From Giardia intestinalis (Eukaryota): a stretch of DNA of 64,000 bases. Position numbers and translations under genes: made by a program. Below are positions 4,734-52,772 of the stretch, piece by piece (within the stretch, counting starts at the first letter, position 1; every line of letters begins with the position of its first letter). The notes below the pieces were generated by a model. It saw nothing but the letters and a program-made list of their open reading frames with translations. It was not told the DNA's origin and searched no databases. Location: NCBI GenBank assembly GCA_000002435.2, contig CM018792.1; one strand, given 5' to 3'.

Positions 4734-4869
4734 TTACATTAGCGGAATAGCTGTGAAAGGTGCTCATGCAGTGTACCGAGAGATGCTGAACAAGGCTAGG
4801 ACAGGGGGCTGATATAATTATTTAAATCATAATATAGCAATCTTCGCAGATTGACAATTGGATTCAATT

Positions 4870-31550: not shown

Positions 31551-31818
31551 GGAGATGGCTGTTAACGTAAGTATTGCAATAGTTAATTAATTTTTCTGTT
31601 TCTGGCCTCAACCCGAGGTCTCTTTAGGATGTCTGTTTACATGTTACACTACTTACTTTCGTTATTCACCTACTAACTCATTTGTTATATCTTCTAATCT
31701 GCAACCTTCGCGTATCAATTGATACTTCAAGCCCTTTTCAGAGCTTACTCCGGGCGCGCCGGGAGGCCTGCGACGGGTGCGAGCCTGCTGACCTGCTGAC
31801 CCGGGTGGAAAGAAAAGG

Positions 31819-32337
31819 ATGGCGTTCAGCTACTTCACGGTCCCGTCTGGCCAGCCCTTCAGGAGGCCGCTGCCCGGCCACGTTGTCGCGCGGCTAGCGC
31901 AGCCCCTCCGGAGGACGCGCTCTGTCGAGGAAGCGGCGGACCGCCGAAGCCAGGCCCTCTGGCGGCGTTCGGAAAAGGCCGGCGAGGTGTACAGAGCGGC
32001 CCGCAAGATCGCCATGAGCAGGCACTTGTTCGACTTTCACGACCGCGCAGTCGCCAAGCACCGCGCAGAAAGGGCGCAGCAGGAGGCAGAGCGCCGAAGG
32101 ACAGCGCTCCTCCAGTGCAAATCCGACGCGATAGCAGCTGGATACAACGAGTGGTACGACGCGCGGGTGTGCAAGGAGGAAGAGGAACACCTATCTAAGT
32201 CAAAGCGCGACAGGTATGGCGGTAAACGGGCAGGCCTCTGGGAAGAGCATCTGATACTCAGCAACGCCTCTATTCGCGTTTCCTCAGTGGGCCCAGCAAG
32301 GGCCCTTTCTGCTCCATATCAGCCAGCGTCTAATTGA
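31819..32337 (+). CDS. Hypothetical 172-aa protein with a basic, coiled-coil-like sequence, in palindrome arm copy 1.
   Basis: An intact ORF that is identical in both arms, Arg/Ala/Glu-rich (RAERAQQEAERRRTALLQ). No homolog was recognised. It may be a genuine small gene carried in the duplicated segment. Confidence 0.3.
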   Translation: MAFSYFTVPSGQPFRRPLPGHVVARLAQPLRRTRSVEEAADRRSQALWRRSEKAGEVYRAARKIAMSRHLFDFHDRAVAKHRAERAQQEAERRRTALLQCKSDAIAAGYNEWYDARVCKEEEEHLSKSKRDRYGGKRAGLWEEHLILSNASIRVSSVGPARALSAPYQPASN

Positions 32338-35300
32338 TGAAAAGTCTTCCTGCAAACCAAGTACTCTATTAAGTGGTTCGTTAGTGAATAGCACCTGTAC
32401 CAAATAGAGAGTTGCATAACGAGCTCAGAGGTTTTCTTCCTCTGTTGAGCCCGTTGCATAGATGAAGTTGGTACGCCTCAATCAGATATCTGAAGTGCCT
32501 CTTTATGAATGTACTCACAGATGCAACTAGAAGAGGTGCATCACACCTGACTCCATGTGTACAGACTTGACGCTATGCAAGATTACTTGACGGAAGTCTT
32601 CAGGGACGCTAGTCATCGGTCTACACGCCAAGGATTAGGAGTCTACATAAGATGCTCTCGCTATACTCTTTTGTATGTTGAAAGGAGCTGATTTCCTAAA
32701 ACACACTGATAAATATCAATAGCTTAAGCTTGAGGCCACAACTCCTCTTTGAACAACAGTCTATCGATGCTCAAGTATGGATTTCTAGAGTATTGATCAC
32801 GATAACCAGGTCTTTGAGATTGTCTTAAATGTCCAACCTTTCTAAAGCGCAGTTTAAATGACTACTAGTTTCCATGGTTTGTAGGCCGTAGTATAGACTT
32901 CGTTGAACTATTATACTTTTCCCATATCCCATAAACGTGCAGAAGGCTACTGTATTCTTGGAAGGGGTGATCTTTCATATATTTCTAAGCACTGAACCGT
33001 GGTTAGGATTGGTGTACAAGGTTATCAGACACACACGATGTCCATATTAAGACGCAGGACTTAAATGCTACAGGCGGCCTCAGAAAGAGCTCTCTGAGGG
33101 AACAAGAAGTGAGGCGACTAATGCACCGAAGATGCTGCGGGCCTCTGTCCACGGAGTGCAAACCCATTACTATGCAATTCGCTACCACAGGCTTCTGTCT
33201 GCGGCGACACAACTACTAGGTGACATCACACTCTGGAAGCTAGTGTGCGGGCTCACGTTGTAAGGTCGGCGGACCGGAGGATGCAGGAGCCACGGGGTAG
33301 TGACTGACCATCATGGCTTCTATAGGCTCTGCGGCTATTAGTACAGGGGCAGGGATGCTGCATCCTGGTGATTGGCCCAGAGCCGCACCATCCAATGGGC
33401 CGACGACCCTCATGTTGTTTCAATCTGAAGCGGCCTCCACTGCTGCCCCCGTACGAGTTGGAGAAGGGGTCGGCCCCATCGAATGCGGCAGAGAACAACA
33501 AGTCCCCAGTCTTCGGGCGAGGAAGATGGGTGATCTCGTCCAGGTGAAGCCGACTCCTCACCGTCCTCTGGGTCCTGCCTCTTCTACCGCCCTGGCACAA
33601 CATAGCTCGGTAGGGGGCGGCGTGTCTGCGCTACAGGACGCGTCGTCAAGAAAGAGTGGGCCTGGAGAGGCCCGACGGCCACCGCTGGGATAGGCCTCAG
33701 AAGCCCTTGGCTGCAGGATACGCTACTGCCAGGGTCAGTGCAGGCTATGGCTTTGAGGAAGCGCAGGACTGACGGGCGCTATCAGGAAACACCTGGCACG
33801 TTCTCGTGGAGAGGGGGACTCAGGCTTGGGGGCTTGGCAGTGTCGGGCCCGGGCTGGGTAGAGAGCTTGCTGTACCCGGAAGTGAAGACCCCAGCAAGCA
33901 GGAATAGTGGCCACAGCCAGTACAGCCGGCGGGTCGACCCGGGCCTCTTCAGCCGCGCTTGATGGAGCCCGACGTTGCGCCAGGCGACGGGACAGGGCAC
34001 CGGCCGTCTCTAGGGCATGCAGGAGGCGAGGCTTGTGAGCCCATGGGCGTCTGGCCTGCAAGCTGAGGCCACATCGGTGACGAGGCCCAGAGTGACGCAG
34101 CGTGGACGCTCTGTGGTGACGGGCCTGACAATGAGTGCAGCAAAGTTATGGGAATGGGCTCCGTCTGGGTCAGGACCTCAGAGTTCTCTTCGTCGTAAGG
34201 AAGAATAGGGCAGTGCGGTATAAGGGAGGCATCCGGCAAGATATGCTGGGAAACTGGCCCGTTGCGGTAAGTCACGGGCGCTGCCAAACACGGCGTCTCT
34301 TCTCTTAGACAGAAGACAGGCAGAATGGGTGACTGCGGAGGCTGCAGTGTCCGTGGTAGATCGCGGCATCGCAATGCGGCTGGGTCCGTGCCGGTGTGTC
34401 TGCCCGGACTCTAAGTGCGCTCTGAGGATCACCTGCTGATGGGCTGGAAGGCCCGAGAAGTGATGTGCTGCCCCTGTCATTGCGGGCAGCGCCCCGTGAC
34501 ACGCACTCGAGCCAGGGCCTCCTGGTGGCCAGAAGCAGAGCAGAGGCAGACGGCCGGTCGTGCATCCGTCCGGGCGGCTCACTGCATGTAGAGCGAAGAA
34601 GACCACTTGCGCCGCTCGGGTTATCGCTCAGCATCAAGTGCGGATGGAAGGCTGGGCCCGGCAACCAGGGCACCGACCTGTACGCTCCTGTCAGCCATCC
34701 CAGGCCGGCCAGAAGCCAGGCTCGACAGGCAGTGCAAAAGCCAGGGAAGCCAGCGTGATCATCGGGCCCGCGTTTGAATGCTAAAAAACTTGGGCGGCGA
34801 TGGCGACTGTCGTCTTCCTGGGAGGGCGCCTCTTCGCACAGGGTCAGCCGTCCTGGCCCTGCATGCTGGGTGCGCGGCTCGAGGGCGCGCTATGCTAGTT
34901 GAGGGCCTGCCAGGCGCTGCAGCCTACGAATAGCACGGACGGATGCAACGGGGTGTCCGAGCAGTGCACTGTCTTTGTCCCAGAGAGCTGTGGTTCTAAC
35001 CATGCGCCCTACACCAGCTCGGCATACCCCTGCTGCTTCCGCTGCTGGTCTGTCTGCCACTTGTTTATTATAGCGGGGGCGCATACGCTTGGGGTGTCGC
35101 CTAGGCACTGTAGTGGTCTTCTCTGACGGTGCGTGTATATTCACATGATGGCCGATGGGTGGAGCGGCTGCCTGATCTCCGAGCTCTCATTGCAACAAGG
35201 CGGGGCGTCGGCTGTCTACACGCCTCTAAGCGAGCCCGCGACCTCTGTGCAGATGCCTGCTCGCCGCGCTCCATAGTGACGGCTGTACACCCAGAAGGGG

Positions 35301-37566
35301 CTGCAGAATCCTCCGCTGTCCTTCGATGTGGACCACGGCTTGTGCACAGGCTAGCGACGGGGCCTGCACACTAGCTTCTATGGGCCCAGCCTGCCAGGCA
35401 CCTGGATCACAGTGCACGTCAAGACCGCACACTCGTTTGCATGCTCGCTGCTAATGTTGAACAGGACTGCGAGGGGTCTGTCTCTGGCCATCCTCGCCTT
35501 AGTACCTGGCCCTTGATGACACGCCTCAGTAGAGGATGGTGTCTTCTAAGTGCTCGGAAGACTATCCGTGCATGGCGGTTCCCGGAGAGTCGGTTCGCAC
35601 AGAAAGCGTAGATGTGCCCGGCGGGCTAGTGGGGTAAGGCTGGGGCTACAGAGACTAGCCATTAGTCCGGATTACAGCAGGGACACCTGTAGTGCCTCCT
35701 CGGCTCCTAAGCGTGGAAAGGCCGTAGAACTTGCAGATGAGTTGGAGGCTGCTTTTTGATTTTATGCATTTGCAGCAGAGCAGAGTTTACTGAAGGTCCA
35801 CTTATTCTAAATTCGAGGAGCCTCATCTCTTCCTCACACACGGTGAGATGATCGATTGTAGGGGTGTACTGTGCAAACCGGTGACAGTCAGCGTATCTAT
35901 TATCCAGACGGATACTGCCTGCGTCCTCCTGTGGCAGACCACCACCAGGGCCCCCAATCTACACATCTGTTCTGGCATCTGTCGGGCAATCATCACCTCC
36001 TGTCGAAGGATTGCTATACGTTACACATCTTGAGCCATCCATCGACCAGGTGGTGCCATAAGCTCTTGTCCCCTACTTGTCCACTCAATGCATACTCTGA
36101 GCGCCGCCAGTTGCACTCACGTCTGCACTACTCATCTGGATGCCCCCCACTCTTCAAGAGCACATGCCCGCAGCCGATGCTCCGTATTACAAGAGAAGTC
36201 AGCCGGATCACTGCGCTGTGCATAGCTCTCATAGGCGTGTTGCTATGCGCGCCCAGCCTTTCCACCCGTAGGCCGCCACGCGTTCACATGTGCGCCAGCG
36301 CCGCCGAGCTTTCGTGGTTTCGAGTGGCCCTGATGCATGGAGCGCTTGCGCACAAGTCCTTCCACCACTGACCCAGGCCGACCCCTCGCAAGATCCTTAG
36401 CGGAGTTGCATCCGAGATGTGTGTCTGCGTTGCTGTCCAGGTGCATGTGCCGGCCCTGGTGCTTCTCACAAGCTTGCGAGCATCGAGCTGGCCTCTACCG
36501 AACCGTATCAGAAGTCAGCACCAGGATGTGGTCCCCTCGGTTGGGCTCTGCAGGCTCCCAGAGCTACGCACCAAAGGGCCGTTCTTCTTTGCGCCGTGTA
36601 ACGTAGGGAGATGCACCGAGCTACTACGCCCTCTCCGTGTGGCGTGGTTTACGACGGGGGACGGGATCCCTGTGCTCATTGTCTATCTGCCCAGGGCCAG
36701 CCGCAGCCCGGGTTGAGGATGACAAGCGAAGATCTCCCAGCTCCTTGTCAGCGGGTGGGAGATCCCGCCACTCTAGTACCCACAACAAAGGGTGCCGATC
36801 ACTGGCAGAGGGACACGACACCCAGGCCCCGCTCCTTCCACTGATGGTACCTAATAAGAGACTCCTTTGTCGCCTGCACCAACAACCTCAGGCACCGTGG
36901 GTCAGAGTGCCTCCATAGTGGACAGCGGTAGCACTATGATGATCTGGGGTGATATGAGTCCTGGCTTACTGGCTCAGGAGGCAGCACGCTTTGGGTGGTT
37001 CTTCCCTCTTGTCCAGATCTGGGAGGGCTGGCTGCCTTCCGAGCCCCCTGGCACCTTGTCAGGTGATGGAGTGTCTTAAAGTATTCATTACAAAAGATCA
37101 GAAATAGCGCCATGCATTCCCAATAGATCAGAGGGTCTCACGAGCTACTCTATGCTGATTCACACCTTTCATGGACCCTAGCGACCACTGTAACCTTCTT
37201 TCGGGATCTTGCAAGGGACTGTCCTTGAGTGCGATTCCCCATGACAGCCGGGAGTCGCAGACATAATCCAAAGGGATGAGAGTACTACAGAGGCTGAGAG
37301 GAGAGTGCCGATGCACAGGGGTCCGCAGAGACCCGACTCGTACAGGGAAGGCGTGGAGGCTGGCTCTCCAGGGATGTAGAGCCACCAGGAAAGGAGCCGG
37401 CAGTGGGGCTGAGGGTCAGCAGAGGCACCCGAGCCGTCCTCTGATTGACCGCGAGGCAGCAGGCACATGGGGCGGCATCACCGCTTGTTTTTGGATTTTC
37501 TGCTTCCCTGCGCGTTGTGCAGGGGTCCGTAGTGGGTTGAGTATCACAGGCTACGCACAGCAACGC

Positions 37567-37581
37567 GTTTACTACCTAAGT
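37567..37581 (-). terminator. Extended vsp polyadenylation motif ACTYAGRTAGTRAAY (ACTTAGGTAGTAAAC on the minus strand), just 3' of the left-arm vsp.
   Basis: It is the reverse complement of gtttactacctaagt at 37567-37581, starting 5 nt after the vsp stop codon. This is the conserved 3' signature of Giardia vsp genes. Confidence 0.75.
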
Positions 37582-37585
37582 ACAT

Positions 37586-39811
37586 CTACGCCTTCCCTCT
37601 GCAGATGAACCACCAGCAGAGGAAGCCCACAAGGCCTCCGACGACGACAATGACTGCGACAGAGATCCCCGCGATGGCACCGGTAGAAAGGCCGCTCTTG
37701 TTCGTGCTTCCGTCGGTACTGTCACCATCTTTTATGAGGTAGCAGAGGACGGAGCCACTACCAGCCGATGGAGGGGCGCAGCTAGCGCAGTTGGCGACGC
37801 CGGTGATGGATCCCCCGTCGCTCTTGTCGCATGCTATGCACTTTTCTTTGGACAGGTAGTACCCTGCAGCGCACACCGTGCACTTGGTGGCATCGTTCGC
37901 ATTGCACTCGGAGCACCCAGTGGCGCAGGGAACACACTTCTGAGTGTTACCGCCAGTCTTAGCATATCCAGCCTTGCACGTGTCGCACTGGTCCTGGCTG
38001 GTGCACGTCTTACATCCGGCCGAGCAAGTGGTGAGCGCGCCGTTATCCAGCTTGTACCCGTCGGCCGGAGTCTGACAAGCATCGCTCGCTTCTGCTGCGG
38101 CTAAGCAGACGCTCTTTCCGGGGAACTTGGTCGTCTCATAGCAGCCCCCGTTCATACGAAGAAGCCCGTTGGCGCATTTATTGCAAACACCACTTCCTTG
38201 AGTAGTGCACGTAATGGCCTTTCCGGCCGCCGCCGAGCAGACTCCGTTCTGCGGAAACTGGCCGGCGTCCTTGCACTTGGAGCAGTAGGCCGTGCCATTG
38301 ACCGTCAGCTCGCACTTCTCGCAGTTGTTAGCATTTGGCTCGCATCCTGGTTTGCACGTCCCCGTGTTGCCCTCTCCTTCGTAGCTGAGGGCCTTCTTAG
38401 GCTCGCAGCTCGTACACCCGTTGGAGTTCCCGTTCGCGCACGTCTTACACGAGGTATCGCACTTGGCACAGGCGGCTCCGCTCTTGTAATATCCGTCCTT
38501 GCAGGTATCACACTGTCCGTTCTCGTTGCACAGGAGGCAGTTCTCGACCTCGCACTTCTTGCAGGCCTTCTTGCCCCCCTCGTTGGTGCCCGCGTAGTAG
38601 CCTCCCAGATCTCCGCAGTTATCGATGCACTGGCCCGTGGGCGTGAGGGCCTTAGTGCCCTCGCACTCTGTGCACACCTCCTTGCTTGTCTTCGGCTCAC
38701 TGCATGTCTTGCAGCCGGGGGTGTTGCACTGGGGGTCGGATTTCTTCGTGCACCCGGTGCCCGCGTTGTCGGGAACGTAGCCCTCGACGCACTCACAAAC
38801 GCCAGAGGTCTTTTCCTCGTTGGAGTTCAAGGGGCAGCTTTCAACGCACCCCTTCTTGTTTGGCTGGATCTTCTTATTAGGCCCGCACGTCTTGCAAACC
38901 ACTCCGGTGGGGCCTTTCTCACAAGTGGCGCAGTCCACCGTCCCTCCGGAAGCGCAGGTGTTGCACTCCTTTGCTTCCTTATCAACGTAATGAGTTGCCG
39001 GGCAGCCGTTTGCGTCAACGCACGTGCCAGTTGTGGACTCGTCATCCTTCTTTAGGTACGGCTTGTCATCCTTGCAGGAGGTGCACTTCGCAGCCCCAGT
39101 CTTACAGGTCTTGCATGTCTCAGCGCACTTGCTGCATTTTTTACCGCCCGTTGTATCGACGAAGAACCCTTCAGTGCCGGTGCACTCCTGTTCCGTCACA
39201 CACGACGTCGCGCCCCCGTCCGTCTTAACAATCCTCGCGGTTTGCTGCGCATCAGGGCCGCACGCAGTACACTTAGCAACTCCATTAGCTTGGCTCGTCA
39301 GTGCAGACCCGTCACAGGTAGTGCACCCGGCCACGCCCGTGTATGTCTTATCGCCAAGCGTTATGCCCGTCGCGTCTCCGCACGGTATAACCGACTGGTG
39401 AGAGACATCTGCGCCCGGTGGCACGAAGTATCCTTGCGCGGCTTGTGTGCATTTTCCCTCAGAGGCTTGCGTGCACATGGTCTGTCCGGGCTGCTGGGCT
39501 GCTTCGTAACACCCGCCCTTGTACATGAAAGTCTGACCAGCGCACTGTCCACAGGTCTGATCGGCTGTATTGCCTCCGGAGCTATCTTTACACTTATCTG
39601 TTGCACCATCTTTGCCTACACATTTTCCATTGATAGGAACAGATCCTGCGTCACATTGAGAACAGTACAGCTTATCGCCAATCAGAACGTTACATGCGTC
39701 TGCTGCACAATTAGTGTTATCTGCGCATTGAACTTCCCGCACGTGCTCTGCTACTTTTTCTGCCCATGCAATCTGGATGGCTAGGCCCGCGAATATAAAA
39801 CTACCGAACAT
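37586..39811 (-). CDS. vsp: Variant-specific surface protein (VSP), 741 aa, left-arm copy.
   Basis: Signal peptide MFGSFIFAGLAIQIAWA. About 11 percent Cys, arranged in dozens of CXXC motifs. Two GGCY motifs. A C-terminal transmembrane helix and the invariant cytoplasmic tail CRGKA. The start is ATGTT. The protein is identical to the right-arm copy. Confidence 0.92.
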   Translation of the reverse strand: MFGSFIFAGLAIQIAWAEKVAEHVREVQCADNTNCAADACNVLIGDKLYCSQCDAGSVPINGKCVGKDGATDKCKDSSGGNTADQTCGQCAGQTFMYKGGCYEAAQQPGQTMCTQASEGKCTQAAQGYFVPPGADVSHQSVIPCGDATGITLGDKTYTGVAGCTTCDGSALTSQANGVAKCTACGPDAQQTARIVKTDGGATSCVTEQECTGTEGFFVDTTGGKKCSKCAETCKTCKTGAAKCTSCKDDKPYLKKDDESTTGTCVDANGCPATHYVDKEAKECNTCASGGTVDCATCEKGPTGVVCKTCGPNKKIQPNKKGCVESCPLNSNEEKTSGVCECVEGYVPDNAGTGCTKKSDPQCNTPGCKTCSEPKTSKEVCTECEGTKALTPTGQCIDNCGDLGGYYAGTNEGGKKACKKCEVENCLLCNENGQCDTCKDGYYKSGAACAKCDTSCKTCANGNSNGCTSCEPKKALSYEGEGNTGTCKPGCEPNANNCEKCELTVNGTAYCSKCKDAGQFPQNGVCSAAAGKAITCTTQGSGVCNKCANGLLRMNGGCYETTKFPGKSVCLAAAEASDACQTPADGYKLDNGALTTCSAGCKTCTSQDQCDTCKAGYAKTGGNTQKCVPCATGCSECNANDATKCTVCAAGYYLSKEKCIACDKSDGGSITGVANCASCAPPSAGSGSVLCYLIKDGDSTDGSTNKSGLSTGAIAGISVAVIVVVGGLVGFLCWWFICRGKA

Positions 39812-41069
39812 TAACCAATCTGATAAATTGATAGGAAAAGAATCGCGGTACGTTCAGCCAATCCGTGTGACTGACACACCGCGGAGTATGGTAGCCTGCT
39901 TGGCGATCAGTAATAAAACGGGATCCACTAGTCTTCTTGAATGTTGCTTCACCCCTCACAATCTAGACACAATGATGATCACCCGACCACTTGTGTGGCC
40001 CATTGTCTTGCAGCGCGGAGCCCTACAGTGGCCATCTTCTGAACGACGCCACCCTGCCATTCGCGGAGGGCCCCTCATCCTCCCTCGTTATAGACCGTGG
40101 CAAAAGAGACACAGCAGGCGGCTTGTCCATCTCCGTAAACATCCGAGAGGGCCCTGCCTGTCTGTGTGAGGAGGTTTACTCTTTCCACCGAGGGCGGTTT
40201 TCGACTACTTCCGGCGCATCAGTCGCGTCCGGGCGGTGGCGTGCCGCTGGGGCCTGCCTGCGGCGTGGTCCAGAAGTCTCACGGGTAAGCCTCGCTCAAT
40301 TCCCGGCCAGCCCGGAGGCGAAGGGTGGTCGTGGGTCGCAGTGATAGCCACAGCGGTGGCAAAGAGGGGTCCCCTCCACGTGTGGATCTGGGGTCTCGCG
40401 TTCCTCGGCTGTTCTGCGGGCATGTGCACACAATCGGACCTGAGGCGAAGGAGAGCCCGCGAGGACCCGATCCGCATTACGAACGCAAGATCGTACCTCC
40501 GGACCCCAAACAGCAAGCCGTGAGTCTCTACTTGGGAGACCACTCCGAAGACGCTTGCCCTCTGGCAGGACACACATGCTGGCTCTGTGGCCTACCGTGT
40601 GAGAGCGCCAACAACTAACCGAGCACCTGAGAGAAGCAAACGATGACAGACACAGAGTACCGGGCGACGACAAGCTGATCCTTCCGGCCCAGTACCGAAC
40701 CAGACAGAGCTCGCCATGCTCATCCACCAAGGTGCACCCATGATCGCGAGCATCGAGCAGGCAGGGACTGGGGTCGCTCTTCCCGCTATCAGGGGCCTAG
40801 ACGCCCTGGTGGGAAGCCCCAGAGGACTCAAGCAACACAGTAGAGCAGGCCCAGAGCAAGTCGGACCCAGATCCAGAGAGGGCGAGGCGCCGGATAGCAA
40901 ACAGGGTGAACAACGCGCTGAGCTTCGGGGCAGTTGCTAAGGCTCTCCGCGCCCTTGATGACACGCCCATGGTAGACATCAAGTCGGAGAAGGCCAAGGC
41001 TGCCCTCAGCGCGCTACACCCGTGCGTCCTCCCCGAAGGCTACGTTGGCCTTGACTACCCTCTATCGAT

Positions 41070-42804
41070 GAACTCGACGGGGCTGGAGTGGCAACCGAGG
41101 AGGAAATGAGAAAGGCCCTGTTGGGACTCTCAACAAGAAGGCCTCGGGCGGTCCAGCTCAGGTGATGAAGCAGAACGACGACTGTGAAATGCCTCACGCA
41201 GGCGTACAACGAGCTGACCACCCACCCCGAAGGAGTCCGACGGATACCCCCGATCGCGATAGGCGAGACGGTCACGAACACCTTCCACCGCGTCCTGCTG
41301 AAGCGGCTGGTCAGGCATGCCAACTACCTCTCATGCGAACAGATCGCCTTCAAGCAGAACGCATACGCGGTAGGTGTGAGGAGGGCCCACGAGCTCATCA
41401 GCAGGCGGGGGTGCACCCCGTCTCCCTCGACATAAAGAACGCCCTCAACTCCCTCCCGAGGGCAGAGGTCGTCAGAGCCCTGAACGAGGCGGGCGTCCCG
41501 AAGGTCCTAGTCGACTACATTAGGAACTTCCTCGACCTGAGGCACAGCCGGGACGTGAAGTGCGAGGTCTGGGGCGTCCCCCAGGGCGACCCGCTCAGCA
41601 CTTTCCTCTTCTGCATGGCCATCGAGCGCCTCCTGAGACGCCTCAAGGAGAGGGGCATCACCTTCCTTGCCTAGCGGACGACATCGTGGCGCTCCACGAC
41701 GAGGCCTACCCGGCAGGCACGATAATACAGCAGGCCACGGTGGAGGCCGCCGCCATGGACCTGACGATCAGGAGCGACAAGTGCAAGTCCACCATGGCGG
41801 GCGAGGAGGTGACTTTCCTCAACCACCCGGTGTCCCCCACCCCTGCAAGCCTTGCCCCAAAGGCCATCGCAGGTGCTGAGACTGCCCCCATAACCATCCA
41901 CTAGAAGCTCATCTTGATGTCACTCTGTGTGGTCCCGATGGTGAACTACGCCCCCCTGGTCGAGATAACATCGGACAAGGCGGACTACGAGGAGCTCGAC
42001 AGACGTCGCACAAGGCTTCAGCAAAATAACCAACAGAAGCTGCGATCGCCTGGTCGACTTCCTGGCGTACCCGAAGGAGAAGGGCGGTCTGGGCCTGCTC
42101 ATGCCGGGGCTCTGCCACGACGAGCTGCGGAGGGCATGGGCCTCCCCGGACGTCAACAAGGGGACCAGGGACCCGGTGGAGCTGTCGGTGGGCGGCCAGG
42201 CACTGCAGGGGAAGGGGACCTACTTCAACCGCCTCCTCACGCGCACACATCAGCTTCCGGACAGAGCGGCGGCGTGCTGACCGAGGAGGAAAGGGCCCTG
42301 AAGGAGAGAGATGGCTCGATCATGGCGCAGACAAGAGGCACCTGCCCAGGCTGCCACACGGCGAGGACCCTCGACCACGAGGCACGACATGATCGTCGCG
42401 TGCCTGTACCTCCGCGTCTCGGGGAAGTTCAACGCAGAGCTGGAGGTCAAGACCCACAGCCACCTCAGCGACCAGAACCAGAAGCCCGACATCTGGCTCG
42501 TCGACAAGTGCAAGGCAGTGGACGTGCGTGTCATCCAGCCCCGCCAGATGGATGCCTACTACAACGAGAAGGTCAAGAAGTACAGGGACGGGACGCTCCC
42601 GATCATCTACGGGACAGACGGCTCCCTCCACCCCAGTCCAAGGGGCACCTCGAGGAGCTCCACGTGGACCTCTATCCGGGCTGCCTTCGCCATCGCCCAC
42701 ATGGCTGCAAAGGCGAACGAGCACCCGACGAAGCTGATCAGACGCGACCGGGCCGAAAGCCTGGCCACCCAGAGCGACCGCCTCCTGTCATCCTACTTCT
42801 GACA
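41070..42804 (+). mobile_element. Dead, 5'-truncated non-LTR retrotransposon (R2-clade; Genie/Gil-like, most like the degenerate Genie 2/GilD type). Reverse-transcriptase and REL-type endonuclease domains are broken by at least 4 frameshifts. A possible upstream zinc-finger remnant lies at ~40560-40650 and an untranslated tail runs to ~43046.
   Basis: RT motifs are spread over three frames: RRIPPIAIGETVTNTFHRVLLKRL; PVSLDIKNALNSL; GVPQGDPLSTFLF; and ITFLA followed by ADDIVALHDEAY, where the YADD box is broken by a 1-nt indel near 41675. The C-terminal block RGTCPGCH...RHDMIVACLYLRVSGKFNAELEVKTHSHLSDQNQKPDIWLVDKCKAVDVRVIQP aligns with the R2 REL-endonuclease (CCHC plus PD..D..K: RHNKIVSFVA...RKPDII...IVDVQVV). 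There is no intact ORF. Confidence 0.8.
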
Positions 42805-43657
42805 ACCGAATGAGCCCATCCCTGGGACCTGTCGACAACGATCGAGGGGGGGGCAAAGACTGGACACACAACCGAGTTGAATCCCAACCAGTGGAGAGAG
42901 CCCCGCTAGCTGCTGCTGATCTACATGGACAGTATCGAAAATGACAACAAAGACCAGAGCTTCACCCACCATGAAGGGAGAACAAGGAGAGGCACCCTCA
43001 GTAGAACAGTGAGTCCGTAAGAAAACCTCGAAAAGATCGATGTGCACGCCCGCGGAACAGCCGAGGAACGCGAGACCCCAGATCCACACGTGGAGGGGAC
43101 CCCTCTTTGCCACCGCTGTGGCTATCACTGCGACCCACGACCACCCTTCGCCTCCGGGCTGGCCGGGAATTGAGCGAGGCTTACCCGTGAGACTTCTGGA
43201 CCACGCCGCAGGCAGGCCCCAGCGGCACGCCACCGCCCGGACGCGACTGATGCGCCGGAAGTAGTCGAAAACCGCCCTCGGTGGAAAGAGTAAACCTCCT
43301 CACACAGACAGGCAGGGCCCTCTCGGATGTTTACGGAGATGGACAAGCCGCCTGCTGTGTCTCTTTTGCCACGGTCTATAACGAGGGAGGATGAGGGGCC
43401 CTCCGCGAATGGCAGGGTGGCGTCGTTCAGAAGATGGCCACTGTAGGGCTCCGCGCTGCAAGACAATGGGCCACACAAGTGGTCGGGTGATCATCATTGT
43501 GTCTAGATTGTGAGGGGTGAAGCAACATTCAAGAAGACTAGTGGATCCCGTTTTATTACTGATCGCCAAGCAGGCTACCATACTCCGCGGTGTGTCAGTC
43601 ACACGGATTGGCTGAACGTACCGCGATTCTTTTCCTATCAATTTATCAGATTGGTTA

Positions 43658-45883
43658 ATGTTCGGTAGTTTTATATTCGCGGGCCTAGCCATCCAGATTG
43701 CATGGGCAGAAAAAGTAGCAGAGCACGTGCGGGAAGTTCAATGCGCAGATAACACTAATTGTGCAGCAGACGCATGTAACGTTCTGATTGGCGATAAGCT
43801 GTACTGTTCTCAATGTGACGCAGGATCTGTTCCTATCAATGGAAAATGTGTAGGCAAAGATGGTGCAACAGATAAGTGTAAAGATAGCTCCGGAGGCAAT
43901 ACAGCCGATCAGACCTGTGGACAGTGCGCTGGTCAGACTTTCATGTACAAGGGCGGGTGTTACGAAGCAGCCCAGCAGCCCGGACAGACCATGTGCACGC
44001 AAGCCTCTGAGGGAAAATGCACACAAGCCGCGCAAGGATACTTCGTGCCACCGGGCGCAGATGTCTCTCACCAGTCGGTTATACCGTGCGGAGACGCGAC
44101 GGGCATAACGCTTGGCGATAAGACATACACGGGCGTGGCCGGGTGCACTACCTGTGACGGGTCTGCACTGACGAGCCAAGCTAATGGAGTTGCTAAGTGT
44201 ACTGCGTGCGGCCCTGATGCGCAGCAAACCGCGAGGATTGTTAAGACGGACGGGGGCGCGACGTCGTGTGTGACGGAACAGGAGTGCACCGGCACTGAAG
44301 GGTTCTTCGTCGATACAACGGGCGGTAAAAAATGCAGCAAGTGCGCTGAGACATGCAAGACCTGTAAGACTGGGGCTGCGAAGTGCACCTCCTGCAAGGA
44401 TGACAAGCCGTACCTAAAGAAGGATGACGAGTCCACAACTGGCACGTGCGTTGACGCAAACGGCTGCCCGGCAACTCATTACGTTGATAAGGAAGCAAAG
44501 GAGTGCAACACCTGCGCTTCCGGAGGGACGGTGGACTGCGCCACTTGTGAGAAAGGCCCCACCGGAGTGGTTTGCAAGACGTGCGGGCCTAATAAGAAGA
44601 TCCAGCCAAACAAGAAGGGGTGCGTTGAAAGCTGCCCCTTGAACTCCAACGAGGAAAAGACCTCTGGCGTTTGTGAGTGCGTCGAGGGCTACGTTCCCGA
44701 CAACGCGGGCACCGGGTGCACGAAGAAATCCGACCCCCAGTGCAACACCCCCGGCTGCAAGACATGCAGTGAGCCGAAGACAAGCAAGGAGGTGTGCACA
44801 GAGTGCGAGGGCACTAAGGCCCTCACGCCCACGGGCCAGTGCATCGATAACTGCGGAGATCTGGGAGGCTACTACGCGGGCACCAACGAGGGGGGCAAGA
44901 AGGCCTGCAAGAAGTGCGAGGTCGAGAACTGCCTCCTGTGCAACGAGAACGGACAGTGTGATACCTGCAAGGACGGATATTACAAGAGCGGAGCCGCCTG
45001 TGCCAAGTGCGATACCTCGTGTAAGACGTGCGCGAACGGGAACTCCAACGGGTGTACGAGCTGCGAGCCTAAGAAGGCCCTCAGCTACGAAGGAGAGGGC
45101 AACACGGGGACGTGCAAACCAGGATGCGAGCCAAATGCTAACAACTGCGAGAAGTGCGAGCTGACGGTCAATGGCACGGCCTACTGCTCCAAGTGCAAGG
45201 ACGCCGGCCAGTTTCCGCAGAACGGAGTCTGCTCGGCGGCGGCCGGAAAGGCCATTACGTGCACTACTCAAGGAAGTGGTGTTTGCAATAAATGCGCCAA
45301 CGGGCTTCTTCGTATGAACGGGGGCTGCTATGAGACGACCAAGTTCCCCGGAAAGAGCGTCTGCTTAGCCGCAGCAGAAGCGAGCGATGCTTGTCAGACT
45401 CCGGCCGACGGGTACAAGCTGGATAACGGCGCGCTCACCACTTGCTCGGCCGGATGTAAGACGTGCACCAGCCAGGACCAGTGCGACACGTGCAAGGCTG
45501 GATATGCTAAGACTGGCGGTAACACTCAGAAGTGTGTTCCCTGCGCCACTGGGTGCTCCGAGTGCAATGCGAACGATGCCACCAAGTGCACGGTGTGCGC
45601 TGCAGGGTACTACCTGTCCAAAGAAAAGTGCATAGCATGCGACAAGAGCGACGGGGGATCCATCACCGGCGTCGCCAACTGCGCTAGCTGCGCCCCTCCA
45701 TCGGCTGGTAGTGGCTCCGTCCTCTGCTACCTCATAAAAGATGGTGACAGTACCGACGGAAGCACGAACAAGAGCGGCCTTTCTACCGGTGCCATCGCGG
45801 GGATCTCTGTCGCAGTCATTGTCGTCGTCGGAGGCCTTGTGGGCTTCCTCTGCTGGTGGTTCATCTGCAGAGGGAAGGCGTAG
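43658..45883 (+). CDS. vsp: Variant-specific surface protein (VSP), 741 aa, right-arm copy. Its amino-acid sequence is identical to the left-arm vsp.
   Basis: The features match those of 37586-39811, including the CRGKA terminus. It is transcribed away from the palindrome centre. Confidence 0.92.
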   Translation: MFGSFIFAGLAIQIAWAEKVAEHVREVQCADNTNCAADACNVLIGDKLYCSQCDAGSVPINGKCVGKDGATDKCKDSSGGNTADQTCGQCAGQTFMYKGGCYEAAQQPGQTMCTQASEGKCTQAAQGYFVPPGADVSHQSVIPCGDATGITLGDKTYTGVAGCTTCDGSALTSQANGVAKCTACGPDAQQTARIVKTDGGATSCVTEQECTGTEGFFVDTTGGKKCSKCAETCKTCKTGAAKCTSCKDDKPYLKKDDESTTGTCVDANGCPATHYVDKEAKECNTCASGGTVDCATCEKGPTGVVCKTCGPNKKIQPNKKGCVESCPLNSNEEKTSGVCECVEGYVPDNAGTGCTKKSDPQCNTPGCKTCSEPKTSKEVCTECEGTKALTPTGQCIDNCGDLGGYYAGTNEGGKKACKKCEVENCLLCNENGQCDTCKDGYYKSGAACAKCDTSCKTCANGNSNGCTSCEPKKALSYEGEGNTGTCKPGCEPNANNCEKCELTVNGTAYCSKCKDAGQFPQNGVCSAAAGKAITCTTQGSGVCNKCANGLLRMNGGCYETTKFPGKSVCLAAAEASDACQTPADGYKLDNGALTTCSAGCKTCTSQDQCDTCKAGYAKTGGNTQKCVPCATGCSECNANDATKCTVCAAGYYLSKEKCIACDKSDGGSITGVANCASCAPPSAGSGSVLCYLIKDGDSTDGSTNKSGLSTGAIAGISVAVIVVVGGLVGFLCWWFICRGKA

Positions 45884-45887
45884 ATGT

Positions 45888-45902
45888 ACTTAGGTAGTAA
45901 AC
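45888..45902 (+). terminator. Extended vsp polyadenylation motif ACTYAGRTAGTRAAY (ACTTAGGTAGTAAAC), 3' of the right-arm vsp.
   Basis: The sequence reads tag atgt ACTTAGGTAGTAAAC gcg, starting 5 nt after the stop codon. Confidence 0.75.
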
Positions 45903-48900
45903 GCGTTGCTGTGCGTAGCCTGTGATACTCAACCCACTACGGACCCCTGCACAACGCGCAGGGAAGCAGAAAATCCAAAAACAAGCGGTGATGCCGCCCC
46001 ATGTGCCTGCTGCCTCGCGGTCAATCAGAGGACGGCTCGGGTGCCTCTGCTGACCCTCAGCCCCACTGCCGGCTCCTTTCCTGGTGGCTCTACATCCCTG
46101 GAGAGCCAGCCTCCACGCCTTCCCTGTACGAGTCGGGTCTCTGCGGACCCCCGTGCATCGGCGCTCTCCTCTCAGCCTCTGTAGTACTCTCATCCCTTTG
46201 GATTATGTCTGCGACTCCCGGCTGTCATGGGGAATCGCACTCAAGGACAGTCCCTTGCAAGATCCCGAAAGAAGGTTACAGTGGTCGCTAGGGTCCATGA
46301 AAGGTGTGAATCAGCATAGAGTAGCTCGTGAGACCCTCTGATCTATTGGGAATGCATGGCGCTATTTCTGATCTTTTGTAATGAATACTTTAAGACACTC
46401 CATCACCTGACAAGGTGCCAGGGGGCTCGGAAGGCAGCCAGCCCTCCCAGATCTGGACAAGAGGGAAGAACCACCCAAAGCGTGCTGCCTCCTGAGCCAG
46501 TAAGCCAGGACTCATATCACCCCAGATCATCATAGTGCTACCGCTGTCCACTATGGAGGCACTCTGACCCACGGTGCCTGAGGTTGTTGGTGCAGGCGAC
46601 AAAGGAGTCTCTTATTAGGTACCATCAGTGGAAGGAGCGGGGCCTGGGTGTCGTGTCCCTCTGCCAGTGATCGGCACCCTTTGTTGTGGGTACTAGAGTG
46701 GCGGGATCTCCCACCCGCTGACAAGGAGCTGGGAGATCTTCGCTTGTCATCCTCAACCCGGGCTGCGGCTGGCCCTGGGCAGATAGACAATGAGCACAGG
46801 GATCCCGTCCCCCGTCGTAAACCACGCCACACGGAGAGGGCGTAGTAGCTCGGTGCATCTCCCTACGTTACACGGCGCAAAGAAGAACGGCCCTTTGGTG
46901 CGTAGCTCTGGGAGCCTGCAGAGCCCAACCGAGGGGACCACATCCTGGTGCTGACTTCTGATACGGTTCGGTAGAGGCCAGCTCGATGCTCGCAAGCTTG
47001 TGAGAAGCACCAGGGCCGGCACATGCACCTGGACAGCAACGCAGACACACATCTCGGATGCAACTCCGCTAAGGATCTTGCGAGGGGTCGGCCTGGGTCA
47101 GTGGTGGAAGGACTTGTGCGCAAGCGCTCCATGCATCAGGGCCACTCGAAACCACGAAAGCTCGGCGGCGCTGGCGCACATGTGAACGCGTGGCGGCCTA
47201 CGGGTGGAAAGGCTGGGCGCGCATAGCAACACGCCTATGAGAGCTATGCACAGCGCAGTGATCCGGCTGACTTCTCTTGTAATACGGAGCATCGGCTGCG
47301 GGCATGTGCTCTTGAAGAGTGGGGGGCATCCAGATGAGTAGTGCAGACGTGAGTGCAACTGGCGGCGCTCAGAGTATGCATTGAGTGGACAAGTAGGGGA
47401 CAAGAGCTTATGGCACCACCTGGTCGATGGATGGCTCAAGATGTGTAACGTATAGCAATCCTTCGACAGGAGGTGATGATTGCCCGACAGATGCCAGAAC
47501 AGATGTGTAGATTGGGGGCCCTGGTGGTGGTCTGCCACAGGAGGACGCAGGCAGTATCCGTCTGGATAATAGATACGCTGACTGTCACCGGTTTGCACAG
47601 TACACCCCTACAATCGATCATCTCACCGTGTGTGAGGAAGAGATGAGGCTCCTCGAATTTAGAATAAGTGGACCTTCAGTAAACTCTGCTCTGCTGCAAA
47701 TGCATAAAATCAAAAAGCAGCCTCCAACTCATCTGCAAGTTCTACGGCCTTTCCACGCTTAGGAGCCGAGGAGGCACTACAGGTGTCCCTGCTGTAATCC
47801 GGACTAATGGCTAGTCTCTGTAGCCCCAGCCTTACCCCACTAGCCCGCCGGGCACATCTACGCTTTCTGTGCGAACCGACTCTCCGGGAACCGCCATGCA
47901 CGGATAGTCTTCCGAGCACTTAGAAGACACCATCCTCTACTGAGGCGTGTCATCAAGGGCCAGGTACTAAGGCGAGGATGGCCAGAGACAGACCCCTCGC
48001 AGTCCTGTTCAACATTAGCAGCGAGCATGCAAACGAGTGTGCGGTCTTGACGTGCACTGTGATCCAGGTGCCTGGCAGGCTGGGCCCATAGAAGCTAGTG
48101 TGCAGGCCCCGTCGCTAGCCTGTACACAAGCCGTGGTCCACATCGAAGGACAGCGGAGGATTCTGCAGCCCCTTCTGGGTGTACAGCCGTCACTATGGAG
48201 CGCGGCGAGCAGGCATCTGCACAGAGGTCGCGGGCTCGCTTAGAGGCGTGTAGACAGCCGACGCCCCGCCTTGTTGCAATGAGAGCTCGGAGATCAGGCA
48301 GCCGCTCCACCCATCGGCCATCATGTGAATATACACGCACCGTCAGAGAAGACCACTACAGTGCCTAGGCGACACCCCAAGCGTATGCGCCCCCGCTATA
48401 ATAAACAAGTGGCAGACAGACCAGCAGCGGAAGCAGCAGGGGTATGCCGAGCTGGTGTAGGGCGCATGGTTAGAACCACAGCTCTCTGGGACAAAGACAG
48501 TGCACTGCTCGGACACCCCGTTGCATCCGTCCGTGCTATTCGTAGGCTGCAGCGCCTGGCAGGCCCTCAACTAGCATAGCGCGCCCTCGAGCCGCGCACC
48601 CAGCATGCAGGGCCAGGACGGCTGACCCTATGCGAAGAGGCGCCCTCCCAGGAAGACGACAGTCGCCATCGCCGCCCAAGTTTTTTAGCATTCAAACGCG
48701 GGCCCGATGATCACGCTGGCTTCCCTGGCTTTTGCACTGCCTGTCGAGCCTGGCTTCTGGCCGGCCTGGGATGGCTGACAGGAGCGTACAGGTCGGTGCC
48801 CTGGTTGCCGGGCCCAGCCTTCCATCCGCACTTGATGCTGAGCGATAACCCGAGCGGCGCAAGTGGTCTTCTTCGCTCTACATGCAGTGAGCCGCCCGGA

Positions 48901-51131
48901 CGGATGCACGACCGGCCGTCTGCCTCTGCTCTGCTTCTGGCCACCAGGAGGCCCTGGCTCGAGTGCGTGTCACGGGGCGCTGCCCGCAATGACAGGGGCA
49001 GCACATCACTTCTCGGGCCTTCCAGCCCATCAGCAGGTGATCCTCAGAGCGCACTTAGAGTCCGGGCAGACACACCGGCACGGACCCAGCCGCATTGCGA
49101 TGCCGCGATCTACCACGGACACTGCAGCCTCCGCAGTCACCCATTCTGCCTGTCTTCTGTCTAAGAGAAGAGACGCCGTGTTTGGCAGCGCCCGTGACTT
49201 ACCGCAACGGGCCAGTTTCCCAGCATATCTTGCCGGATGCCTCCCTTATACCGCACTGCCCTATTCTTCCTTACGACGAAGAGAACTCTGAGGTCCTGAC
49301 CCAGACGGAGCCCATTCCCATAACTTTGCTGCACTCATTGTCAGGCCCGTCACCACAGAGCGTCCACGCTGCGTCACTCTGGGCCTCGTCACCGATGTGG
49401 CCTCAGCTTGCAGGCCAGACGCCCATGGGCTCACAAGCCTCGCCTCCTGCATGCCCTAGAGACGGCCGGTGCCCTGTCCCGTCGCCTGGCGCAACGTCGG
49501 GCTCCATCAAGCGCGGCTGAAGAGGCCCGGGTCGACCCGCCGGCTGTACTGGCTGTGGCCACTATTCCTGCTTGCTGGGGTCTTCACTTCCGGGTACAGC
49601 AAGCTCTCTACCCAGCCCGGGCCCGACACTGCCAAGCCCCCAAGCCTGAGTCCCCCTCTCCACGAGAACGTGCCAGGTGTTTCCTGATAGCGCCCGTCAG
49701 TCCTGCGCTTCCTCAAAGCCATAGCCTGCACTGACCCTGGCAGTAGCGTATCCTGCAGCCAAGGGCTTCTGAGGCCTATCCCAGCGGTGGCCGTCGGGCC
49801 TCTCCAGGCCCACTCTTTCTTGACGACGCGTCCTGTAGCGCAGACACGCCGCCCCCTACCGAGCTATGTTGTGCCAGGGCGGTAGAAGAGGCAGGACCCA
49901 GAGGACGGTGAGGAGTCGGCTTCACCTGGACGAGATCACCCATCTTCCTCGCCCGAAGACTGGGGACTTGTTGTTCTCTGCCGCATTCGATGGGGCCGAC
50001 CCCTTCTCCAACTCGTACGGGGGCAGCAGTGGAGGCCGCTTCAGATTGAAACAACATGAGGGTCGTCGGCCCATTGGATGGTGCGGCTCTGGGCCAATCA
50101 CCAGGATGCAGCATCCCTGCCCCTGTACTAATAGCCGCAGAGCCTATAGAAGCCATGATGGTCAGTCACTACCCCGTGGCTCCTGCATCCTCCGGTCCGC
50201 CGACCTTACAACGTGAGCCCGCACACTAGCTTCCAGAGTGTGATGTCACCTAGTAGTTGTGTCGCCGCAGACAGAAGCCTGTGGTAGCGAATTGCATAGT
50301 AATGGGTTTGCACTCCGTGGACAGAGGCCCGCAGCATCTTCGGTGCATTAGTCGCCTCACTTCTTGTTCCCTCAGAGAGCTCTTTCTGAGGCCGCCTGTA
50401 GCATTTAAGTCCTGCGTCTTAATATGGACATCGTGTGTGTCTGATAACCTTGTACACCAATCCTAACCACGGTTCAGTGCTTAGAAATATATGAAAGATC
50501 ACCCCTTCCAAGAATACAGTAGCCTTCTGCACGTTTATGGGATATGGGAAAAGTATAATAGTTCAACGAAGTCTATACTACGGCCTACAAACCATGGAAA
50601 CTAGTAGTCATTTAAACTGCGCTTTAGAAAGGTTGGACATTTAAGACAATCTCAAAGACCTGGTTATCGTGATCAATACTCTAGAAATCCATACTTGAGC
50701 ATCGATAGACTGTTGTTCAAAGAGGAGTTGTGGCCTCAAGCTTAAGCTATTGATATTTATCAGTGTGTTTTAGGAAATCAGCTCCTTTCAACATACAAAA
50801 GAGTATAGCGAGAGCATCTTATGTAGACTCCTAATCCTTGGCGTGTAGACCGATGACTAGCGTCCCTGAAGACTTCCGTCAAGTAATCTTGCATAGCGTC
50901 AAGTCTGTACACATGGAGTCAGGTGTGATGCACCTCTTCTAGTTGCATCTGTGAGTACATTCATAAAGAGGCACTTCAGATATCTGATTGAGGCGTACCA
51001 ACTTCATCTATGCAACGGGCTCAACAGAGGAAGAAAACCTCTGAGCTCGTTATGCAACTCTCTATTTGGTACAGGTGCTATTCACTAACGAACCACTTAA
51101 TAGAGTACTTGGTTTGCAGGAAGACTTTTCA

Positions 51132-51650
51132 TCAATTAGACGCTGGCTGATATGGAGCAGAAAGGGCCCTTGCTGGGCCCACTGAGGAAACGCGAATAGA
51201 GGCGTTGCTGAGTATCAGATGCTCTTCCCAGAGGCCTGCCCGTTTACCGCCATACCTGTCGCGCTTTGACTTAGATAGGTGTTCCTCTTCCTCCTTGCAC
51301 ACCCGCGCGTCGTACCACTCGTTGTATCCAGCTGCTATCGCGTCGGATTTGCACTGGAGGAGCGCTGTCCTTCGGCGCTCTGCCTCCTGCTGCGCCCTTT
51401 CTGCGCGGTGCTTGGCGACTGCGCGGTCGTGAAAGTCGAACAAGTGCCTGCTCATGGCGATCTTGCGGGCCGCTCTGTACACCTCGCCGGCCTTTTCCGA
51501 ACGCCGCCAGAGGGCCTGGCTTCGGCGGTCCGCCGCTTCCTCGACAGAGCGCGTCCTCCGGAGGGGCTGCGCTAGCCGCGCGACAACGTGGCCGGGCAGC
51601 GGCCTCCTGAAGGGCTGGCCAGACGGGACCGTGAAGTAGCTGAACGCCAT
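51132..51650 (-). CDS. Hypothetical 172-aa protein in palindrome arm copy 2, identical to 31819-32337.
   Basis: The mirror twin of the left-arm ORF, with identical translation. Confidence 0.3.
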   Translation of the reverse strand: MAFSYFTVPSGQPFRRPLPGHVVARLAQPLRRTRSVEEAADRRSQALWRRSEKAGEVYRAARKIAMSRHLFDFHDRAVAKHRAERAQQEAERRRTALLQCKSDAIAAGYNEWYDARVCKEEEEHLSKSKRDRYGGKRAGLWEEHLILSNASIRVSSVGPARALSAPYQPASN

Positions 51651-51854
51651 CCTTTTCTTTCCACCCGGGTCAGCAGGTCAGCAGGCTCGCACCCGTCGCA
51701 GGCCTCCCGGCGCGCCCGGAGTAAGCTTTGGGGATGCCCACATTTCAGAAGTATTCAAATCCTAACTACATTACATAGTCATAATCTCAATACGAAGAAA
51801 CAGTCGGCCTACTAAGTTACCAATGGACGTACCAAGCAAGTTAATGGGAGCTAT

Positions 51855-52595
51855 TCACTTTGTGAAGGTCTTAGAAAAGTATTCCTTCTTCTTTTCGGGA
51901 TCAGGAATAATGAAGTCGTTCTTCTCAGGAGTCCAGCCGCACGGGATGACACCGCCGGTTTTATCAGCGTACTGGAAGGCCTGAATCATACGCATAGCTT
52001 CTTCGACAGAGCGACCCACAGGAAAATCGTTAATTGTAACATGGCGTACAATTCCTTTATCGGAGACGATAAACATGGCACGCAGAGCAAGACCCATTTC
52101 CTCAACGAGTATGCCAAAATCACGTGCCATCTTATGATTCGTGTCGGCGAATAGATCACATTTGCAGGGCCCGATCCCCCCGTCTGTCTTATTCTGAAGG
52201 CACCAAGCGTGGTGGCTATAAACAGTGTCTGTCGAGCCAATGATAATCTCAGTGTTATACTTCTTCTTCAGTTGCTCAGCCATAGAGGAAAAATGAATGA
52301 TCTCAGAGGGACAGACAAAGGTGAAGTCGGCTGGATAGAAGAAGATGATCAGATATTTGCCCTTGTAATCTGCAAGCTTACGCTTAGTAAACTTGAGTTC
52401 AGGGGTAAGGACCTCCACTTCAAAGTCGGGACAAGGGGTGCCTGGAATGGGAACGGAACTGGTTGTCTTGAGCTGCATGCAGACTTCTGTGTCGCCAAAC
52501 TTCTCACACTTATCAGGTATGCACGTATTCTTATTCACGGTCAGCGTACAAGCAGCCGCAAAGGCAACCGAGATAAGACATATCAGCAGTAGCAT
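51855..52595 (-). CDS. 2-Cys peroxiredoxin (thioredoxin peroxidase) with a predicted N-terminal signal peptide. The start is called at MLLLICLISVAFAAA; the ORF could extend to 52739.
   Basis: Peroxidatic Cys motif FTFVCPSEI. Resolving Cys region GGVIPCGWTP. Thioredoxin-fold core (KYLIIFFYPADF...). A hydrophobic leader lies ahead of the catalytic domain. Confidence 0.8.
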   Translation of the reverse strand: MLLLICLISVAFAAACTLTVNKNTCIPDKCEKFGDTEVCMQLKTTSSVPIPGTPCPDFEVEVLTPELKFTKRKLADYKGKYLIIFFYPADFTFVCPSEIIHFSSMAEQLKKKYNTEIIIGSTDTVYSHHAWCLQNKTDGGIGPCKCDLFADTNHKMARDFGILVEEMGLALRAMFIVSDKGIVRHVTINDFPVGRSVEEAMRMIQAFQYADKTGGVIPCGWTPEKNDFIIPDPEKKKEYFSKTFTK

Positions 52596-52772
52596 TTTTA
52601 TTGGGCCTTTTTCGTGTAAATTACTTCCAGCTTCATTCTTTAACACGATACTGCATCTGCGCCTTCGTCTCCCCCTCCTCTCACAATAGTGCCCCTTCCT
52701 GCATAATGCTAACTGCTTTGCAAGAGCCTGTAGTGTCACATATATCTTAGAGGTATATGCTTAAAATATAAC

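Follow-up and report, generated by a model that had tools for sequence, protein, structure and literature searches.

In a 64,000-nt stretch of the Giardia intestinalis genome (WB-type, assemblage A; contig CM018792.1 of assembly GCA_000002435.2; hereafter the window), we found an interstitial palindrome of ~20 kb, with unique DNA on both sides, whose arms each carry an identical variant-specific surface protein (VSP) gene and whose single-copy core is the body of a dead, GilD/Genie 2-like retrotransposon of the non-LTR type (LTR, long terminal repeat). An inverted repeat that is conserved around other copies of this retrotransposon family lies exactly at the boundary between arm and spacer. 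We consider it probable that this repeat, as part of the element, seeded the palindrome, that gene conversion has kept the arms uniform and that the dead family spread as DNA. The gene pair and a reverse transcriptase (RT) remnant between its members are already annotated in the published reference genome, and in this respect the window re-identifies a known feature. What is new is that a conserved terminal repeat is identified as the likely seed, that arm lengths are graded among copies of the element and that there is evidence of spread at the DNA level. VSP genes underlie antigenic variation in this major human parasite, and the mechanism by which their repertoire is duplicated is not settled.

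The left arm (31739-40424) and the right arm (43045-51730), each 8,686 nt long, mirror one another and form the single large inverted repeat in the window. Compared base by base, they differ at seven sites (left-arm positions 31741, 34839, 35345, 37306, 37317, 40415 and 40422), corresponding to 99.92% identity, and the 2,620 nt that separate them (40425-43044) are the only single-copy DNA between the two. If a 2-nt indel is allowed, the inverted repeat reaches GTGCAC hexamers at 40429 and 43041. The G+C content of the arms and core is 53-62%, compared with 46-51% in the flanks, and the outer arm boundaries are sharp, adjoining a zf-CHY gene and a peroxiredoxin gene. The VSP genes are arranged head to head, the left copy (37586-39811, - strand; Pfam VSP E 1.6e-140) with its start codon toward the core and the right copy at 43658-45883 on the + strand. 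Both encode a 741-aa protein ending in a CRGKA tail, the two proteins are 100% identical over 741 aa (tblastn), and 3,846 bp lie between the open reading frames (ORFs), whose start codons are at 39811 and 43658. Thus, the flanking inverted repeat of ~8.7 kb with whole genes that had been described in an initial annotation of this sequence is borne out, each arm holding the 741-aa VSP gene and a 172-aa ORF.

The window locus matches the published VSP pair GL50803_00111933/00111936. The WB reference genome lists on chromosome 4 the pair 111933/111936, in the orientation '<- ->', with 741 aa, 3846 bp and 'psiRT' between the genes (Xu 2020, PMC7000408, Table 2). The locus also fits vsp162, a head-to-head pair with a spacing of 3847 in a Sanger-era survey (Adam 2010, PMC2996952). 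With two identical, inverted VSP ORFs 2-4 kb apart, the window pair is one of the identical inverted WB pairs (vsp1267; Adam 2010; Xu 2020, Table 2), which the earlier survey termed a 'cryptic observation' and whose spacers it described simply as non-coding DNA (Adam 2010, PMC2996952). Retrotransposon remnants were later reported to be frequent between head-to-head VSP pairs, and duplication 'driven by transposition' was proposed (bioRxiv 10.1101/2022.03.07.483299). The novelty implied by the initial annotation was therefore overstated, since the RT remnant between the same VSP pair is given in Table 2 of PMC7000408. The published WB descriptions, however, cover no more than the two genes and a few hundred bp beside them, whereas here the arms extend 8.7 kb to sharp boundaries and the spacer is identified together with its conserved terminal inverted repeat.

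Arms that are nearly identical across 8.7 kb could reflect an artifact of long-read assembly, for example a chimeric fold-back or a contig end present in duplicate, and duplicated VSP pairs have been suspected as artifacts before (bioRxiv 10.1101/2022.03.07.483299). Independent short-read assemblies nevertheless link the arm to two different flanks: on the left, contig L006 crosses, at 100% identity, from the flank into the first 1.4 kb of the arm; on the right, contigs from a 97% identical isolate (L012) and from isolate DH (L013) cross in the same way and cover 3.4 kb and 0.5 kb of arm sequence, respectively. Further contigs break ~32 nt (about one k-mer) inside the boundaries, with L007 and L008 ending at 31771 and L014 starting at 51698, as expected of a de Bruijn assembler at a true two-copy repeat. 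The arms also differ at the seven sites and by the 2-nt indel, and the Sanger-era assembly has the same pair at the same spacing. Contradicted by the flank-crossing contigs, the arm differences and the Sanger-era spacing, an artifact is extremely unlikely and was rejected. At one of the arm differences (34839/48630), the right arm of L012 carries the WB left-arm allele, which is compatible with exchange between arms.

The core (40430-43040, + strand) is similar along its whole length to four other copies of the element, denoted L001-L004 (84-87% identity by blastn, 92-94% over ungapped columns). The remains of a single ORF span 40524-42802 on the + strand in three frames. They include an N-terminal Cys/His motif, CWLCGLPCES..LTEHL (40570-40650), that is possibly a C2H2-like finger, an RT domain (Pfam RVT_1, 41184-41800) and a restriction-like endonuclease (42343-42583). 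RT motifs A (VSLDIKNALNS, from 41420), B (GVPQGDPLS, from 41573) and C, (Y)ADD, are recognizable, all on the + strand and spread over the three frames. The RVT_1 match has an E value of 2.3e-10 for the uninterrupted frame 41411-41671 (87 aa) and of 3.9e-20 for a stitched 624-aa translation (72.9 bits against a cutoff of 29.6 bits). In the endonuclease, a remnant of the CCHC knuckle (CPGCH...H, 42343-42378, + strand), whose last Cys was removed by a 38-nt deletion, precedes an RHD and KPD...D...EK..KY catalytic block (42482-42583, + strand). The 3´ untranslated region (UTR; 42803-43040, + strand) is kept in all copies up to the right-hand conserved repeat and has no poly(A) run.

When the window copy is set against the majority of the four other copies, at least 16 indels that break the frame are counted in it, among them deletions of 17, 53, 22 and 38 nt. 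It has an in-frame stop as well, with TAG at 41902 instead of the CAG of the other copies. A single nucleotide deleted after 41673 breaks the YADD box (GCCTA-GCGGACGAC in the window versus GCCTATGCGGACGAC in L003 and L004), and the longest ORF with real homology in the core is shorter than 170 aa. To judge from its sequence, the window copy is dead and encodes nothing functional. A reading of the motifs as a functional host gene or an active retrotransposon could point to RT and endonuclease motifs that are still recognizable and to the metagenomic copy L004, which is split into only three ORFs. The indels, the stop, the broken YADD box, the lost CCHC cysteine and the short homologous ORFs of the window copy contradict this reading, which was rejected as vanishingly improbable. 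The initial annotation had described the spacer as the only non-duplicated DNA of the palindrome and as a dead, frameshifted RT and R2-type endonuclease, with motifs in three frames and a YADD box broken by a single-base indel. Each of these points held up, with RVT_1 and R2 proteins as the matches and no intact host gene in place of the broken ORF.

All full-length copies of the family are bracketed by a conserved inverted repeat of ~170-225 bp. In the window, the ~220 bp of each arm that lie closest to the core consist of this repeat, as IR-L (40205-40429) in the left arm and IR-R (43041-43265) in the right arm; IR-L is homologous to the sequences that flank L001, L002 and L003 on the 5´ side. 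Beyond the repeat, arm sequence is locus-specific, and in the window comprises 8.5 kb that include the VSP gene. The length of the inverted repeat varies widely among loci: 170 nt at 98% identity for L001, whose flanking genes are not VSPs; a degenerate 55 nt for L002; at least 890 nt for L003 (isolate DH), where the arm holds a VSP 3´ end and runs off the contig; at least 431 nt for L005 (assemblage B, isolate GS), where the arms hold VSP 3´ ends and likewise run off the contig; and 8,686 nt with a whole VSP gene per arm for the window. The suggestion that the window palindrome is a much larger version of the short repeat of this family gains support from the homologous inner ~220 bp and from the series of 55-170, at least 890 and 8,686 nt, and a check on other copies, which the initial annotation had proposed, found the full-length ones bracketed by inverted repeats with arms of varying length. 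A segment of ~15 nt in the inner repeat is missing from both window arms and kept in the other copies, which points to homogenization or to the formation of one arm from the other. The window arms (99.92%) are more alike than paralogous cores, which are 92-96% identical; the right arm is 97-99% identical between isolates.

Several features of the other copies bear on the structure of the repeat. The arms of L003 (306-561, mirrored at 4379-4630) hold the reverse complement of the right end of a second GilD, consisting of the repeat motif and a 3´ UTR fragment, and the same inverted 3´ UTR piece is found upstream at L002:8892-8936. These second ends suggest that palindromes formed in nested or successive rounds or that the spacer was inverted. 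The inverted repeats at 163-491, 491-762, 760-928 and 924-1052 of L003, compared with 3887-4773, show identities of 99%, 97%, 95% and 86% toward the center. This gradient looks like strata in which the outer parts were added or converted later than the conserved inner repeat. L005 (contig AHHH01000426) is a tail-to-tail VSP pair with a 1,640-nt spacer that contains only the 3´ half of the element and the right conserved repeat. Tail-to-tail pairs in WB imply spacers of ~1.4-2.2 kb (PMC7000408), near the L005 size, and may hold the same truncated GilD derivative despite having no RT annotation.

The distribution of lesions among copies bears on how the family has multiplied. Frame-breaking indels are common to different subsets of copies at different loci, including {window, L002}, {window, L003}, {window, L001}, {L001, L004} and {L002, L003}. 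The YADD lesion is common to {window, L001, L002} and another indel to {window, L002, L003}. Such a mosaic cannot arise through independent decay after retrotransposition but can be explained by duplication and recombination of copies that were already dead. We infer that the dead family spread and exchanged sequence as DNA rather than by retrotransposition. Among the copies compared, we detected no LTRs, poly(A) tail, target-site duplication or variable 5´ ends. The lack of these insertion hallmarks is informative about the origin of the present copies, as DNA, and not about the ancestry of the ORF.

The homology of the inner ~220 bp of the arms to the repeat at other loci, the graded arm lengths and the locus-specific sequence beyond the repeat lead us to favor a model in which the palindrome was seeded by the repeat of the element. 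Two short copies of this repeat would provide inverted homology within one chromosome. A break or a stalled replication fork beside the repeat could then be followed by recombination or template switching between the repeat copies, through fold-back or break-induced copying, such that one flank would be copied in inverted orientation to the other side and the VSP gene duplicated with it. Because the palindrome is interstitial, flanked on either side by unique sequence, one more template switch or joining event would be required, which would give the sharp outer boundary, and gene conversion from arm to arm since that time would keep the arms ~99.9% identical. Palindromes seeded by short inverted repeats are known from Tetrahymena rDNA and from models of yeast and mammalian amplification, and the large, near-identical palindromes of the human Y chromosome are kept uniform by arm-to-arm gene conversion. 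The window resembles these systems in having arms of >99.9% identity around a unique spacer of a few kb and a short inverted repeat exactly at the arm-spacer boundary; the comparison is an analogy.

A number of points weigh against this model. We found no microhomology or residual homology at the outer boundaries (local score of 15 versus a shuffle mean of 14.5). The near-identity of the arms could stem from a very recent duplication rather than from ongoing conversion, and the core is assigned to GilD/Genie 2 by described properties of that family. In addition, G. muris, with almost no retrotransposons, has seven pairs of identical VSP genes placed head to head or tail to tail, and remnants of NEK, ankyrin and zinc-finger genes lie between inverted pairs (PMC7641422). 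In WB, psiRT is annotated in only 4/19 pairs, comprising 4/7 head-to-head and 0/12 tail-to-tail pairs, and NEK lies between the genes in one (PMC7000408). VSP palindromes may thus form without GilD.

These last two observations, together with the description of the spacers as plain non-coding DNA (Adam 2010, PMC2996952), are also what speaks for the main rival to seeding by the repeat, in which the element is a passenger: VSP-associated recombination would make the pairs, and GilD would survive, or would have been trapped, in gene-poor loops. We judge this fairly unlikely. The conserved repeat also brackets the non-VSP copy L001 and is homologous between loci, which argues that it belongs to the element unit and not to VSP flanks, and the window arms start exactly at this repeat. 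Moreover, tail-to-tail pairs in isolates DH (L003) and GS (L005) have GilD in the spacer, and since this type of pair has no RT annotation in WB, the annotation probably undercounts.

A further possibility is that the conserved repeat was the target rather than a part of the element, with an R2-like endonuclease inserting GilD into a dispersed palindrome that already existed and with long arms that are older or of independent origin. Elements with restriction-like endonucleases are typically site-specific, as established for R2, and Burke in 2002 is said to have described Genie 1 as site-specific. In line with such targeting, all copies have the same 5´ and 3´ repeat junctions, and the repeat motif recurs in L003 at a distance from the main element. 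The mosaic frameshifts, however, indicate that dead copies were duplicated or recombined as DNA, and copying at this level explains identical junctions without site-specific insertion. The extra motifs in L003 are joined to the inverted GilD 3´ UTR fragment and so represent ends of elements rather than empty sites, and no empty repeat-repeat site was present among the sequences examined. We therefore consider insertion into an existing palindrome to be improbable.

If seeding at the repeat of the element, the reading that we prefer, were true genome-wide, it would give a mechanistic account of VSP pairs. Our comparison adds a testable link, namely a conserved inverted repeat of the relic itself that lies exactly at the arm-spacer boundary, with arm lengths that range upward from this repeat to 8.7 kb across copies. 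A more far-reaching proposal, about which we are rather doubtful, is that the ~200-bp GilD terminal repeat is a general engine that creates and maintains identical VSP pairs. All or most of the ~20 WB pairs, the tail-to-tail ones among them, would then be centered on GilD, with the unit spreading as DNA and duplicating antigen genes, and the palindromes would perhaps yield hairpin transcripts for RNA-based VSP silencing.

The relationships of the core were examined with a majority consensus of five copies, which gave an 813-aa conceptual protein. In its architecture, a Cys/His motif near the N terminus is combined in one ORF with an RT domain of the non-LTR/group II type and, downstream of the RT, a C-terminal CCHC motif and a PD-(D/E)XK restriction-like endonuclease; the window copy itself is without the last CCHC cysteine. 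In the PDB, the closest matches by sequence are R2 proteins (9nl2, 5.8e-13; R2Bm 8gh6, 6.1e-10), and the C-terminal part aligns to the endonuclease region of R2Bm (residues 925-1032) through C-x2-C...H...C, RH(D/N), KPD, D and EK..KY. The endonuclease motifs C-x2-C...H...C, RH, PD, D and EK..KY are kept across 12 diplomonad elements. We also used P0001, a 367-aa ORF that is intact, represents the C-terminal part of a metagenomic copy and shows 83% identity to the window. As the query of an exhaustive HMMER search, P0001 retrieved intact 'reverse transcriptase/endonuclease' proteins of Spironucleus, Hexamita and Giardia. Its AlphaFold model (mean predicted local distance difference test score of 64, and 75-84 in the endonuclease part) matched by fold only R2 proteins, at E 1e-7 to 1e-5, followed by PD-(D/E)XK influenza PA-N endonucleases. 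Among 5.8 billion proteins, close relatives are confined to five ORFs of Giardia duodenalis that are labeled 'hypothetical' and carry frameshifts of their own.

The element thus resembles R2-type elements (R2Bm, R2Tg) in its single ORF, in which a CCHC knuckle and a PD-(D/E)XK endonuclease come after the RT, and R2 proteins are the best PDB matches by both sequence and fold. It differs in having ~16% identity, no rDNA target, no detected Myb domain, a much shorter ORF of ~815 aa and terminal inverted repeats, which R2 elements are without. The N-terminal CWLCG...LTEHL motif has no Pfam match, and its second His is at an atypical distance. Counterparts are found at the same place in intact relatives (CPDCARY..HHAAH in P0083 and CKMCRARY..HVARLGH in P0071), and the motif is only suggestive of a finger. 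P0083, an 828-aa protein from Logan contigs of 4.5-5 kb, appears to be intact, with an N-terminal CxxC...HxxxH, an RT and an endonuclease, and, among living elements, is perhaps the nearest relative of the dead Giardia family.

GilD is reportedly a 'dead' non-LTR retrotransposon family of Giardia lamblia, described by Arkhipova and Morrison in 2001, and the same 'dead' family is said to have been named Genie 2 by Burke et al. in 2002; the published flanking inverted repeat is reportedly 172 bp. The core fits GilD/Genie 2, the lineage that the initial annotation had considered plausible, and corresponds to a full-length but thoroughly decayed member. The family is restricted to Giardia, and 6/6 copies examined have frameshifts or deletions. 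The consensus is 28% identical over 545 columns to P0071, an intact 883-aa Giardia RT, which marks the element as a separate lineage, distinct from GilM/GilT (Genie 1); we infer from its intactness and annotation that P0071 stands for the Genie 1 group. Inverted repeats of roughly 170 bp flank the copies (170 nt at 98% for L001), and their VSP neighborhood agrees with GilD, which sits in gene-poor regions adjoining VSPs (PMC2861651). The window thus resembles GilD/Genie 2 in being Giardia-only, decayed, marked by internal deletions, VSP-adjacent in gene-poor DNA (PMC2861651) and apart from the telomeric GilM/GilT (Genie 1), and differs in that its inverted repeat extends 8.7 kb and holds a whole VSP gene. 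Exact-pattern scans of JGI metagenome contigs with two conserved GilD sequences, 23- and 28-mers, found none.

The initial annotation had also called the element 5´-truncated, and this description did not stand. The 5´ limit is identical in the four copies that reach the 5´ end, the fifth, L004, being cut by the end of its contig. The 813-aa consensus is colinear with the intact 828-aa P0083 from about residue 13 (115-793 versus 128-813; 28% identity, E 4e-67), and ~255-270 residues precede the RT in both. N-terminal loss would amount at most to the first dozen or so codons and would be family-wide. Given that all copies that reach their ends share both of them and that the consensus is colinear with an intact relative, random 5´ truncation was rejected in favor of a full-length member riddled with internal deletions.

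Apart from the VSP gene, each arm holds a 172-aa ORF, at 31819-32337 (+ strand), 80 nt inside the left arm, with its mirror copy at 51132-51650 (- strand), close to the outer boundary of the right arm. L006 and L012 have a gene call for this ORF; it has no Pfam match, and homologs with 74-98% identity are found in other Giardia assemblies. Between this ORF and the VSP gene lies a 5.2-kb stretch (32338-37585, mirrored at 45884-51131; 53-60% G+C) with no ORF longer than 194 aa, no Pfam match and no similarity to VSP or GilD, which is nonetheless duplicated with near-perfect fidelity. An Rfam scan of the window gave no RNA family, no tandem repeats were detected at 30-53 kb of the window, and the single-strand fold of the repeat arm is unremarkable (z = 0.86). 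The peroxiredoxin (AhpC-TSA) gene that adjoins the right arm (51855-52739, - strand) had no exact protein record with either of the two start codons tried, whereas neighboring genes have records. It is called at 263, 246 or 231 aa in other assemblies, its start being annotated inconsistently. At the other end of the palindrome, contigs L009 and L010 (both 1-570, aligned to window 31739-32288) from a Giardia lineage that is ~73% identical begin within ~10 nt of the equivalent of the left outer boundary, which hints that the boundary beside the 172-aa ORF is old and held in common between assemblages.

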